Assembly (NCBI GenBank): GCA_038740615.1
Contig: JAVYLQ010000005.1
Span: 1 to 22,001, forward strand
Source of the DNA: Candidatus Anstonellales archaeon
GTDB taxonomy: Archaea > Micrarchaeota > Micrarchaeia > Anstonellales > J096
DNA length: 22,001 bases
Reading direction: 5' to 3'
The position numbers were made by a program. Below are positions 18,001 through 21,000 of the stretch, piece by piece (the stretch's first letter is position 1; each line of letters begins with the position of its first letter).

Positions 18001-21000
18001 CTATAGAGCTACTAGAGATGTAAATGGACTTAGTGATGAAACTATAATCACTCTACCTATGTATGTGTTCAGTATAGGTTTGCTCAAAGCCAAATTCGAA
18101 ATATATTTCACCCTTGGATATCTATTTATATTTTTATATTTATTAATAAAACTGCTAAATCTATTTGCTCATTTAAAAATAACAAAATTAAACTACGTGC
18201 TCTATTTAATACCAATATTATTTGCAGGATATTCTTCTATTGGTCCTATAGACACATTTGCACTGATGATAAAATCCAATTTTCTAACATCAATATCTAA
18301 CGATCCAACCAGATTGATAGAACTGAAAAATATCGCATGTTCAGCATATCCAGGAATTTTCCCAGATTGTAATCAGTCTCAATTCGAGATAACAACGCAG
18401 TATAGTAGATTAATGTGTAATCTGGATATGATCATTAATAGGCAGAATGATACTGTTAGTAATATTCTCTATTCCACATCATGTAACCACATTCCATTTG
18501 AATGGTATGATTCGATGATGTTTCTAAAATACTCTACAGAGCCAGATTCAATAATAACTTCATGGTGGGATTATGGTCATTGGATCAATTATTGGGGCGA
18601 GAGAAAAGCTACAATAAGAAATGATCACTCTGTGCTATCTATGATTCTGGATGTAGCTTATGCGTATATACAAGGTGATGACACCGTTCTCAGAGATACA
18701 CTAAAGAAATATGGATCGAATTATGTTCTATTTGATCAGGAAATAATATTATCTAATCCTCTATTTGGGGGTAAATTCTATGCACTAAATTACCTCTCCT
18801 GTGCAAAAATAGGTCAGGTAGATCAGAGATTCCCTATGATGTCTAGTAAGTGTGAATATGAGAATCTTTGGGAATCTGTATTGATCACCAATGACAGATG
18901 CAATATAGATGGTAAAATTGGTAGAGTGGGGGCCGTGATTGAATATACTGGTTATACTGGTGCTATTCAGCAGAGACTAGTGAATAGTTATTGTATAGTC
19001 AACAATGATGGAACTCTAGATCTCAGTAGGGCCACTAATAGATTTGTCAGAACACTATTCCGAGATCAGATTGGAGGTATTAGAAATCCTCCATTCATAA
19101 TGTACAGGTTAAATGATTCTAAATTACATAGAGGTATCCCTGTACCAATCTCTCAAAATCTTCTCATCATTCTTTACACATACGATGAGGTATGGTTTGT
19201 GGATGGAACCTGGACTTCAGGATACGAGGATAGAACAAGTAGATTCTATAATTCTAGCTTATACAGAGGGTTTATACTTGAAACTTTAGACGGATTTGAG
19301 CCAGTATATAATAATGGATATGTGAAGATCTATCGATTGAGATAATGCTTTAGACTATCTGATACTCTATACCTAGGTATTGCCTCTAGAGGATAGGAAG
19401 ACCTGTAACCTTGGATATATAATTCTTCCCCTAGAACAGCTATCATGGCTCCATTATCTCTATTATACATATTATCTGTTCTAAGTATCTCCACACCGTA
19501 TTGTTTTGAGAATTTATCTAACATCTCATTTAGAATTTTACTCTGAGCTACCCCACCGCATACTATTACACTCTCAGCGTTATAAGCAAATACAGCTCTT
19601 GCCAACGTTTCTAACAACATACTAAAACTAGTGTGGAAAAGTGAATACGCAAGATTTTCCACTCTATCTAGTTTTTTATTTGCTCTATTCACAAAGTATG
19701 TATATATTCCTGCAAAAGTAGTATTCATACCCTTAACTGTATATGGAAATTCTATATACTTATCATGCTGTAATGCAAGTCTCTCCAAATCTGCAGCATT
19801 TCTCAATCCTAAATATCTAGCTGCTTTATCTAACATATTACCAATACCCATATCCAGTGTCTCTCCAATGATCTTCAAATCTCTAACTCTTAGAATCATA
19901 GTATTTCCTCCACTTATATATAGAGCAAGATCACCAGATCTGCGATTAGTAAATTCAACTATCTTCACGTGTGCATATCCGTGATTAACTCCTATAACAG
20001 GAATGTTTAGCTTATATGATAAATAATTTGCCATTCCGACTCCAAATGATAGAGGAGCTCCTATCCCAGGGCCCTGACTAACAGCTATTAGATTGATATC
20101 TCTAAGAGAAATCTCTGCGCTACTTAGAGCAGATTCTAGAAGAGGTCTGAAAAACTTTGCATGATGTTCAGCTAGATCTCTGGGTATATAACTACCCTGA
20201 TATGTATCTAGAACGTTCACTAATTTGTCCTCGATCTTTATCCCTATCCCTAGTGTATGTGCTGTAGATTCAATTCCTAGAGTGATCATATTCTAGATCT
20301 ACTTATTTTCTCATACCATTTTATTAAATAGTTTGCGCTCTTCATGAGTAATATTGAAACAATTACTGATGATAAAATCAATATAAACCCTATGTTAATC
20401 AGGTTCAGACCAAATACCTTGTCTAGCTGAGCAAAAACTATCAGGGTAAACTCTCCTACTGCCAATGATAAGAAAGAGATGTTTATTGCATTCTTCATAT
20501 TATAACCTAATCTCTGGAAGTAGATGATTGACGTCAAGGATTTGATCGCAACTATAACCAACAATAATATAAGGGCAATTCTCCAATACTCTATATTAAA
20601 TAATGCCTCCAGATCTAATTGAGTACCTATATATATAAGAAATATGGATATAAAAGTCTCTGAGAATAGAAAGATACTATCTCTTATTTTCTGGAATTCT
20701 CTAGAGAATAGATTTGATACTGATCCTGCGATGAATGCTGCAACACCCAGAGGGAATTCTATGAGCTGAGCTATGAGAAGTAAAACAACAAATATGCTCA
20801 TGAAGAAAGAGAAATACATCTGTTTTATATTATCATCATTGCCATTATGATTTGTCTCTATGCTGTTTATAACATCCTTTATTATAGAGGCAATGGATAT
20901 TACAATAATTGTCATTATTATGAACATCACTCCTGAAATAAATAGATTATATATCTCTGTGGATAGTGAAGATATTGATATTGTGGTAGCTTTGAATAGA

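Follow-up and report, generated by a model that had tools for sequence, protein, structure and literature searches.

Probable loss of the threonylcarbamoyl-AMP synthase gene, with KEOPS retained, in a clade of hot-spring Micrarchaeota

What does an intact Kae1 do in a genome in which the preceding enzyme of t6A synthesis cannot be recognised? This question is raised by the window analysed here, a stretch of 22,001 nucleotides from the genome of a Candidatus Anstonellales archaeon (G000). The canonical archaeal t6A pathway is composed of Sua5, the threonylcarbamoyl-AMP (TC-AMP) synthase, and the KEOPS complex (Kae1, Bud32, Pcc1, Cgi121 and Pcc2). Sua5/TsaC is ranked among the ~60 proteins common to all cells, a few DPANN ectosymbionts being the known exceptions. 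The window encodes Kae1, the t6A transferase catalytic subunit of KEOPS, as an intact ORF of 319 aa on the minus strand (19330..20289): PF00814 (TsaD) matches residues 32-284 with 4e-57 and 194.4 bits (cut-off 24.8), and the best NCBIfam model, arch_KAE1 (TIGR03722), scores 2.7e-85 and 286.3 bits, below its curated cut-off of 375 bits. The motifs NHGYAH, SGGNT, GETLDMGIGN, CGGVAQS and NRDNGAMIA are present and align with 17 other sequences of the family; we take them to represent the metal-binding His-x3-His pair, the C-terminal Asp and the glycine-rich nucleotide loops around the site for nucleotide and metal. Orthologs of Kae1 occur in all 19 genomes of the family. Upstream of it lies a gene of the Na+/H+ exchanger family (410 aa; 20286..21518, minus strand), whose 3' end shares 4 nt with the beginning of Kae1, which makes co-transcription of both genes probable, while the convergent AglB-like oligosaccharyltransferase gene (956 aa; 16475..19345, plus strand), which shares 16 nt with Kae1 at the 3' ends, is a mere neighbour.

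The survey's finding that no Sua5/TsaC/YrdC gene can be detected in this genome or in its three closest relatives was confirmed. In G000, the PF01300 profile search came up empty at E≤10, and the family-wide scan reproduced the reported count of 15 positive genomes out of 19, the negative ones being G000, G007, G008 and G009, with completeness scores of 83-88%. Neither a local HMM built from 12 Sua5/TsaC sequences of the family and run with --max (best E 0.077) nor tblastn with the same 12 sequences (best E 0.043) gave anything significant in G000, and HHalign of a 61-sequence profile against the 566 ORF products of at least 90 aa, a scan that included no independent positive control, reached a maximum probability of 4.8%. 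Likewise, the Sua5_C domain (PF03481) was absent from these four genomes and present in G005. In the whole order, PF01300 was detected in 163 of 176 genomes, including 63 out of 63 with a completeness of at least 90%. Two members of the same genus (g1), G005 and G006, do encode Sua5, with the KGR and SAN elements of the KxR/SxN tetrad of the YrdC-like domain. A search of 5.8 billion proteins yielded only these two members of the g1-type Sua5 (G006 at 100% and G005 at 65% identity), the next match (52%) being a generic Sua5 with a canonical N-terminus. In a metagenome scan, the G006 protein retrieved 52 loci with identities of up to 47%, and not one of them resembled G000 in its DNA or closely in its proteins; the scanned collection seems to be devoid of these populations, and the scan therefore weighs neither for nor against an unbinned Sua5. 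A 292-aa gene beside Elp3, matching Sua5 in length, turned out to encode an M42 peptidase-like protein.

The positions at which relatives carry tsaC can be inspected directly, and two of them fall within the window. In genus g4 (G012, G013), tsaC lies directly downstream of the ortholog of class I lysyl-tRNA synthetase (LysRS), here a 491-aa protein (5909..7384, plus strand; Pfam tRNA-synt_1f, 6.7e-80) followed at the tsaC position by a VTT/DedA-type membrane protein of 200 aa (7381..7983, plus strand). In genera g2 and g7 (G018, G003, G004, G002), it is found directly downstream of the ortholog of a PIN-domain/T2SSE-type ATPase, here of 479 aa (8418..9857, plus strand; Pfam T2SSE and PIN_4), and in the window this position is taken by a ResIII/DEAD helicase of 461 aa (9850..11235, plus strand), with 8 nt of overlap at the ATPase stop. 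ATPase and helicase adjoin each other directly in each of the six g1 genomes, and no contig break interrupts the block LysRS-VTT-Lrp-ATPase-helicase in G000, G007, G008 or G009, so that both sites used by other genera lie within contigs and are occupied by other genes in each of the four.

A third site is that of the g1-type Sua5 itself, which in G005 and G006 stands next to the gene of a DRG GTPase. Its Elp3 side, as defined in G005, is contiguous in the four Sua5-less genomes; on the DRG side, all four show a tRNA-Gly(CCC) ~28-45 nt past the GTPase stop, where G005 and G006 have Sua5. G009 is contiguous across this site and contains no Sua5, and the order described for it by the survey (438-aa ORF, tRNA-Gly, DRG GTPase, FtsZ) was correct. 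The accompanying caveat, that the matching locus of G000 ends at a contig edge, is valid and applies more widely than had been stated, G000, G007 and G008, three of the four, each having a contig end located 96-476 nt beyond the tRNA-Gly. The break is caused by a multi-copy repeat: G008 carries three copies of a 177-aa gene that falls in neither a Pfam nor an NCBIfam family, each at a contig start; C2:13-266 of G000 and the end of C7 share 95% identity; and in the Logan contigs of four hot-spring runs compared with C2:1-2000, the unitigs fragment at positions 1-366, their depth rising to 52-92 at the C2 edge versus 26 on the unique flank. At its start, contig C4 of G008 bears a 38-aa ORF end, which could have been taken for a remnant of the Sua5 C-terminus; it belongs to this same repeated gene, of which it is the end. 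The order DRG, tRNA-Gly was also considered as the ancestral one, with Sua5 as an insertion in G005 and G006, and was rejected: tRNA-Gly stands beside DRG in 0 of 14 other loci, and the adjacency is therefore derived in the four-genome clade. Two histories may be drawn, either a replacement of tsaC by sua5 followed by the loss of the latter, or a loss of tsaC with sua5 regained in G005 and G006.

The broken DRG locus, its cause in a repeat, and completeness scores that reach only 83-88% are what speak for an artefact of assembly or binning, by which the gene would reside on a stretch captured in none of the four bins, for instance beyond the repeat; indeed, these genomes are metagenome bins of 15-70 contigs, none of them closed. 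We nevertheless consider such an artefact distinctly improbable, given the uninterrupted DRG site of G009 and the contiguity of all the other candidate sites. Moreover, the four genomes form one clade in the Kae1 maximum-likelihood tree (support 100/99) and are diverged, separate species, with Kae1 78% and V-ATPase subunit I ~60% identical among them. Out of 715 ORFs of G005, homologs exist in G000 as well as G009 for 417, in G000 only for 24 and in G009 only for 14; in this three-genome comparison, the shortfall relative to the genes shared by the other two is at most 3.2% for G000 and at most 5.4% for G009, a miss rate of 3-5% per genome that is well under what the completeness scores suggest. 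SAM synthetase, in its archaeal form as well as the bacterial-type MetK, and CTP synthase, two further conserved enzymes, are absent from precisely these four genomes and present in G005 and G006, so that an artefact would require several loci to be hidden in all four. Homologs of the SHMT, ThyX, DAHP synthase and other proteins of G005 were likewise not found in G000 and G009. By comparison, the other nine negatives of the order-wide scan (a background of 9/172) are scattered singletons, never clustered in a clade. On the strength of the monophyly, the contiguous tsaC sites, the miss rate and the co-loss, the loss proposed by the survey is better supported than it was there: the clade has very probably lost its TC-AMP synthase gene in earnest, most likely in a single event that maps to one branch.

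Searches with Pfam and NCBIfam models and with orthologs found Kae1, Bud32, Pcc1 and the methylthiotransferase in all four genomes, in agreement with what had been noted for G000. Bud32 (C18:1630-2184) matches the full arch_bud32 model (1-193) with 111 bits, below the 125-bit cut-off, and is full-length in 4/4. Pcc1 (C19:3622-3831) narrowly exceeds its Pfam cut-off (21.7 versus 20.9 bits) and has orthologs 58-90% identical in G007, G008 and G009; a single Pcc1-like match appeared per g1 genome, no search aimed at the paralog Pcc2 having been made, and Pcc1 scores 17-21 bits in the Sua5-less clade versus 31-34 in G005 and G006. The MtaB-type ms2t6A methylthiotransferase (C4:9920-11191) surpasses the TIGR01578 cut-off in the four genomes (371 bits versus 314.7 in G000) and comprises all three Pfam domains (UPF0004, radical SAM and TRAM), its CxxxCxxC motif reading CLSACHFC. 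Comparison of G000 with G008 gave dN/dS values of 0.056 for Kae1, 0.052 for Bud32 and 0.049 for the MtaB-type enzyme, the median of 36 genes being 0.092; the value of 0.25 for Pcc1 derives from only 14 changes. Kae1, Bud32 and the methylthiotransferase are hence under strong purifying selection after the loss. On the side of the substrate, U36-A37-A38 is kept in all nine ANN-decoding tRNAs detected, though A37 might be conserved in them for reasons other than t6A.

Maintenance of these genes could also mean that t6A has been abandoned and that KEOPS persists in a t6A-independent role, such as recombination or repair, with the methylthiotransferase acting on another substrate. In Saccharolobus islandicus, KEOPS has been described as essential whatever the level of t6A (Wu et al. 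2023, PMC10989989), and its retention alone is therefore no proof of t6A synthesis. Furthermore, TIGR01578 is labelled 'hypoth_equivalog', the t6A37 substrate of the archaeal enzymes having been assigned by inference, and Cgi121, the subunit of KEOPS that binds the tRNA CCA according to the same article (PMC10989989), could not be recognised. As regards this last point, the failure reported by the survey was confirmed in G000 (no match to PF08617) and extends to the whole family, with 0 of 19 genomes above the cut-off, 15 of them possessing Sua5/TsaC; it is therefore not specific to the Sua5-less clade. Against the abandonment of t6A, the Kae1 motifs, whose nucleotide- and metal-binding roles we assume, are unchanged in all four genomes, and an enzyme type whose known substrate is t6A remains intact in each of them under the strong selection described. 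The parallel with S. islandicus (PMC10989989) explains why KEOPS might be kept even if t6A were not made, but that organism has Sua5 and makes t6A; in the clade analysed here, a t6A-dependent methylthiotransferase is kept as well. Taken together, we regard the abandonment of t6A as unlikely.

Continued use of the downstream half suggests instead that these cells probably still make t6A, with the first step supplied from outside their own genome. We propose that the ancestor of a four-species clade of hot-spring Micrarchaeota with very small genomes (~0.52-0.6 Mb) lost the TC-AMP synthase gene within a broader loss of biosynthetic functions from the genome. Kae1, Bud32 and Pcc1 would still transfer the threonylcarbamoyl group to A37 of the tRNAs that read ANN codons, and the radical-SAM enzyme would then convert t6A to ms2t6A. 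The likeliest source of the missing step would be the Sua5/TsaC protein of a host, or its product, acquired via cell-cell contact, as proposed for Nanoarchaeum equitans, for which the supply of either TC-AMP or the enzyme by the host has been put forward (Pichard-Kostuch et al. 2023, PMC10321239). The members of the clade come from hot springs, and TC-AMP is described as very unstable at high temperature (PMC10321239), which argues against the transfer of the free intermediate. A life in obligate contact with a host cell is pointed to indirectly by the genome of 0.52-0.54 Mb and by the lack of SAM synthetase, CTP synthase, SHMT and ThyX. The account as a whole, joining the loss, the persistence of t6A synthesis and an external, likely host-derived first step, is the one towards which we lean, with limited confidence.

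The survey had offered as an alternative origin of TC-AMP an unrelated enzyme encoded by the genome itself, a non-orthologous replacement that, if true, would be the first non-homologous substitute for one of the ~60 universal protein families. There is room for it, inasmuch as 104 ORFs of G000 have a homolog in G009 and none in G005. Among them, 50 encode soluble proteins of at least 110 aa, and 25 of the 48 scanned against Pfam belong to no family, an example being a 301-aa protein (C1:60912-61817) that is 63% identical between G000 and G009. However, this phyletic complement search delivered no credible candidate: none bears an adenylate-forming, ATP-grasp or YrdC-like signature, and Kae1, Bud32, Pcc1 and MtaB are not associated with any uncharacterised gene other than ordinary neighbours. 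The filter is in addition noisy, owing to the incompleteness of G005 itself, and also yields MCM, ribosomal protein S19e, eIF6 and SepF. In the Atlas, the 301-aa protein had only a weak DIT1/PvcA-like lead and another, of 418 aa, none at all. As the clade-specific proteins offered nothing in its support, we judge a replacement very unlikely, and that it sits among the 25 soluble Pfam-less proteins common to G000 and G009 and absent from G005 a shade less probable still.

Several known systems bear comparison with this clade. Some insect endosymbiont bacteria have lost the whole t6A pathway, both steps together; the resemblance resides in extreme genome reduction breaking a universal pathway, with the difference that only the first step is missing here. 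When set beside the canonical archaeal pathway, the clade agrees in Kae1 with its conserved motifs, Bud32, Pcc1 and U36-A37 of the ANN tRNAs, and departs from it in the missing Sua5/TsaC and the unrecognisable Cgi121. The closest case is that of N. equitans, a DPANN ectosymbiont with a genome of ~0.5 Mb which encodes KEOPS and is devoid of Sua5/TsaC (PMC10321239). Consequently, the break in the universal pathway with KEOPS kept, which the survey had put forward as new, is already published for that organism, as is the idea of host supply (PMC10321239). Sua5/TsaC also went undetected in Nanobdella aerobiophila and in bins of Undinarchaeota and Huberarchaea, although the authors leave open whether those bins truly lack it (PMC10321239); these are DPANN archaea as well. 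The clade described here belongs to a different phylum-level lineage, the Micrarchaeota, and its loss is recent and bracketed, given that the gene persists in sister species of the same genus and in every other genus of the family, while N. equitans has a closed genome and our clade is known from bins. Retention of the ms2t6A enzyme and dN/dS values are documented here; the parts of PMC10321239 on which we draw contain no such report. Hence, a Sua5-less state with KEOPS preserved is already known, and a phylogenetically bracketed case in Micrarchaeota would be new. With same-genus sisters that have the enzyme, a loss on one branch and selection measurable after it, the clade constitutes a cleaner natural experiment than N. 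equitans, in which it can be tested whether a symbiont completes a core step of translation with an enzyme, or a highly labile intermediate, borrowed from its host.

As a separate observation, SAM synthetase is absent from the same four genomes while radical-SAM enzymes are kept, a combination that suggests a broader tendency to import activated adenosyl compounds.

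No gene of the Sua5/TsaC/YrdC family (PF01300), the TC-AMP synthases of the first t6A step, was found in the studied genome (G000; 541,905 bases, 31 contigs, ∼34% G+C, completeness score 83%), where PF01300 gave 0 candidates even at E ≤ 10 while 14 of 14 control genomes were positive. Within the family, 15 of 19 genomes were positive, including two of its own genus (g1), G005 and G006, and the only negatives were G000 and three further g1 genomes, G007, G008 and G009. On G000, tblastn and a local HMM, trained on 12 Sua5/TsaC sequences of the family and used with --max, reached a best E of 0.04–0.08, and HHalign of a 61-sequence profile against the 566 G000 ORF products of at least 90 aa, a comparison with no independent positive control, gave probabilities of at most 4.8%. 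Likewise, the Sua5 C-terminal domain was found in G005 and in none of the four. These searches agree with the survey's finding that the subclade has no gene of this family, and we consider the loss very probably real.

Several independent lines indicate that the absence is more than incompleteness. PF01300 was present in 163 of 176 genomes of the order and in 63 of the 63 that are at least 90% complete, and the negatives outside the four (9/172) were scattered singletons of 55–89% completeness. A maximum-likelihood tree of Kae1 recovered g1 as monophyletic (support 100/100), with (G005, G006) set against (G009, (G007, (G000, G008))), the latter group supported at 100/99; since the four negatives form one clade, one event suffices to account for them. 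G000 and G008 share 96–97% protein identity, and in G007 and G009 the V-ATPase subunit I is only ∼60% and Kae1 78% identical to that of G000; the four are distinct species and not close copies. When the full assemblies of G009 (518 kb in 15 contigs) and G005 (631 kb in 49 contigs) were compared with G000, 417 of 715 G005 ORFs had homologs in both other genomes, 24 in G000 only, 14 in G009 only and 260 in neither. Therefore G000 misses at most 14/431 (3.2%) and G009 at most 24/441 (5.4%) of the genes common to the other two, far better than their marker scores of 83–84% suggest, and by chance fewer than one shared gene is expected to be absent from both.

A Pfam scan of 222 of the G005 ORFs of at least 90 aa missing from both G000 and G009 returned, besides Sua5, mostly hypothetical and accessory genes, together with a coherent biosynthetic set comprising CTP synthase, the archaeal SAM synthetase, ThyX, SHMT, ThiI, DAHP synthase, class V FBPase, prephenate dehydratase/dehydrogenase, and spermidine synthase along with AdoMet decarboxylase. 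In the family scan, SAM synthetase PF01941 was absent from the four Sua5-less genomes as well as from genus g4 and G015, the bacterial-type MetK (PF02773), which g4 has, was absent from the four, and CTP synthase was absent from the four and from G004. Given this co-loss of Sua5, SAM synthetase and CTP synthase, an explanation by assembly artefact would require that several unlinked loci went unseen in each of four different species. Radical-SAM enzymes are retained despite the lack of SAM synthetase, namely the MtaB-type ms2t6A methylthiotransferase (C4:9920-11191) and Elp3 (C19:8874-10388), which makes this a second case of a lost producer with its consumers kept and implies SAM import.

The remaining genera have the enzyme in its short TsaC form (∼200 aa), encoded directly 3' of a PIN/T2SSE ATPase gene in G018, G003, G004 and G002 and directly 3' of the class I LysRS gene in G012 and G013. 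Both partners lie in the window, LysRS at 5909-7384, followed by a VTT/DedA protein gene, and the ATPase at 8418-9857, followed with an 8-nt overlap by a helicase gene. The block LysRS-VTT-Lrp-ATPase-helicase is unbroken in all four Sua5-less genomes, and because the ATPase-helicase junction is direct, with no tsaC, in six of six g1 genomes, tsaC was lost from the ATPase-linked site on the g1 stem. The PIN-ATPase gene of G006 (C47) has one in-frame TAA. In G005 and G006 the enzyme is a long Sua5 of 290–298 aa (PF01300 plus Sua5_C). It is possible that this long form replaced tsaC and was later lost in the four-genome clade; alternatively, the whole genus could have lost the enzyme, with G005 and G006 regaining sua5 by transfer. 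Beyond the pair, the nearest relatives of their sua5 reach only 42–52% identity and are spread over many groups of archaea. G011 carries a long Sua5-like gene (L004, G011:C32, 1426-2328) that lacks ∼29 residues of the catalytic domain, and, at the edge of another contig (C106:9-476), a further ORF of the short TsaC type; both forms may occur in this one genome.

In G005 and G006 the genes for Sua5 and a DRG-type GTPase overlap at their 3' ends, and in G005 Elp3 flanks Sua5 on its other side. The Elp3 side is unbroken in all four Sua5-less genomes (179-aa gene, M42 peptidase-like gene, Elp3). On the DRG side, a tRNA-Gly(CCC) lies ∼28–45 nt after the DRG stop in four of four, an adjacency seen at none of 14 other loci examined, which points to a flank remodelled once in the ancestor of the clade. 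The assembly past this tRNA is continuous in G009 only. The earlier caveat that the G000 locus ends at a contig edge holds but is wider than stated, since contigs end 357 nt (G000), 476 nt (G008) and 96 nt (G007) past the tRNA. A multi-copy unit breaks the assemblies at G000 C2:1-357 and C7:20214-20462 and at the starts of C4, C7 and C11 of G008: C2:13-266 is 95% identical to the C7 end, unitigs from four hot-spring runs break up at C2:1-366 (depth 52–92 versus 26 on the unique flank), and each of those G008 contigs (loci L015, L143 and L024) starts with a copy of a 177-aa gene that belongs to no known family. Next to the tRNA, an 84-aa ORF represents what is left of the C-terminus of a tail-anchored protein of 470 aa. 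The unit, possibly a mobile or recombining element, consists of the 177-aa gene facing that of the 470-aa protein, and truncated copies adjoin tRNA-Gly(CCC) and tRNA-Ser(GCU). The main residual doubt on the Sua5 loss is the sequence past the repeat at the DRG side in G000, G007 and G008, the one assembly caveat that remains.

The gap had been presented as a new break in a universal pathway, a claim that existing literature overtakes. Pichard-Kostuch et al. (PMC10321239) name N. equitans and Nanobdella aerobiophila as lacking Sua5/TsaC, report it as not detected in Undinarchaeota and Huberarchaea, and describe KEOPS as encoded by N. equitans, the same combination as in the four genomes. The clade is hence a new lineage for an already published phenomenon, Sua5 lost and KEOPS kept, and no Micrarchaeota case came up in literature searches on Micrarchaeota and threonylcarbamoyl, Sua5 in DPANN, and N. 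equitans t6A/KEOPS; the phylum is taken here from the NCBI name given to the G005 protein. For N. equitans the same authors weigh two things that a host might provide, TC-AMP (unlikely at 90°C) and the enzyme itself. Wu et al. 2023 (PMC10989989) show that KEOPS of S. islandicus has an essential role which does not depend on how much t6A is present.

The suggestion that an unrelated enzyme makes TC-AMP was not borne out, and nothing in the data points to a novel TC-AMP synthase. Among 104 G000 ORFs with a G009 homolog and none in G005, 50 are soluble and at least 110 aa long; 48 of these were scanned against Pfam, and none of the 48 showed an adenylate-forming or carboxylate-activating signature. 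Families were assigned to 23, including MCM, S19e, eIF6, an aRF1-like protein and SepF, so that the filter mostly mirrors G005's own gaps, and 25 had none. No gene of unknown function was consistently linked to KEOPS or MtaB genes. The best-conserved Pfam-less ORF (C1:60912-61817; L240:1791-2696) encodes a soluble 301-aa protein, 63% identical between G000 and G009 with no G005 homolog, in a cluster with HMG-CoA reductase; its nearest Atlas neighbours, hypothetical proteins and a DIT1/PvcA-like cluster, are a weak lead, and a 418-aa Pfam-less ORF gave none.

As the survey had proposed, the downstream half is kept under selection, and the whole is most likely a real gene loss with its downstream machinery maintained. 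Between G000 and G008, which split after the loss, dN/dS from our own Nei-Gojobori script was 0.056 for Kae1 (41 synonymous, 9 non-synonymous changes), 0.052 for Bud32 and 0.049 for the MtaB type, against a median of 0.092 over 36 genes; Pcc1 gave 0.25 from only 14 changes. Kae1 is present in 19/19 family genomes and Bud32 is full-length in 17/19, including the four, at 107–114 bits, similar to Sua5-positive G006. Pcc1 is recognized by Pfam in 18/19, weakly in the clade (17–21 bits versus 31–34 in G005/G006), and the G000 protein as query found an intact ortholog in five of five g1 relatives, the G009 copy being 58% identical. The MtaB type, which combines the UPF0004, radical SAM and TRAM domains, scores 371 bits against the TIGR01578 cut-off of 314.7, which it passes in all four. 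Cgi121 was above cut-off in 0/19 family genomes, so its gap is a family trait. Elsewhere in the family, the Kae1 ortholog of G006 (C99) is split into two overlapping matches, and Bud32 of G002 (C1) has one in-frame TAA and MtaB of G014 (C1) one in-frame TGA. All nine ANN-decoding tRNAs detected by ARAGORN in G000 have U36-A37-A38. Two over-long calls, one of undetermined type and one tRNA-Tyr with an odd anticodon (ATA), at C1:20270-20357 and C25:2226-2319, are probably intron-containing tRNAs misread.

The Kae1 ORF (window 19330-20289, minus strand, 319 aa) matches Pfam TsaD over residues 32-284 (4e-57), and its top NCBIfam model is archaeal Kae1 (2.7e-85, 286 bits, under the model's 375-bit cut-off). 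Alignment with orthologs from 17 other family genomes showed that it retains NHGYAH, SGGNT, GETLDMGIGN, CGGVAQS and NRDNGAMIA, motifs which we take to serve in metal and nucleotide binding. The residue after SGGNT is M in all four Sua5-less genomes and Q in the remaining 14 aligned sequences (SGGNTQ in 13, SGANTQ in G003), so SGGNTM is a clade-specific change beside a presumed nucleotide-binding loop. Four nucleotides are shared between the Kae1 start and the stop of a Na+/H+ exchanger gene, and 16 nt between the 3' ends of Kae1 and of an AglB-like gene that converges on it. Three adjoining minus-strand genes of the window (12347-13135, 13284-13925 and 13962-14798; 213–278 aa) have dN/dS of 0.44, 0.22 and 0.12, relatively high for the window; the N-termini of the first two products are twin-arginine-like, and one of the three genes is without a G005 homolog.
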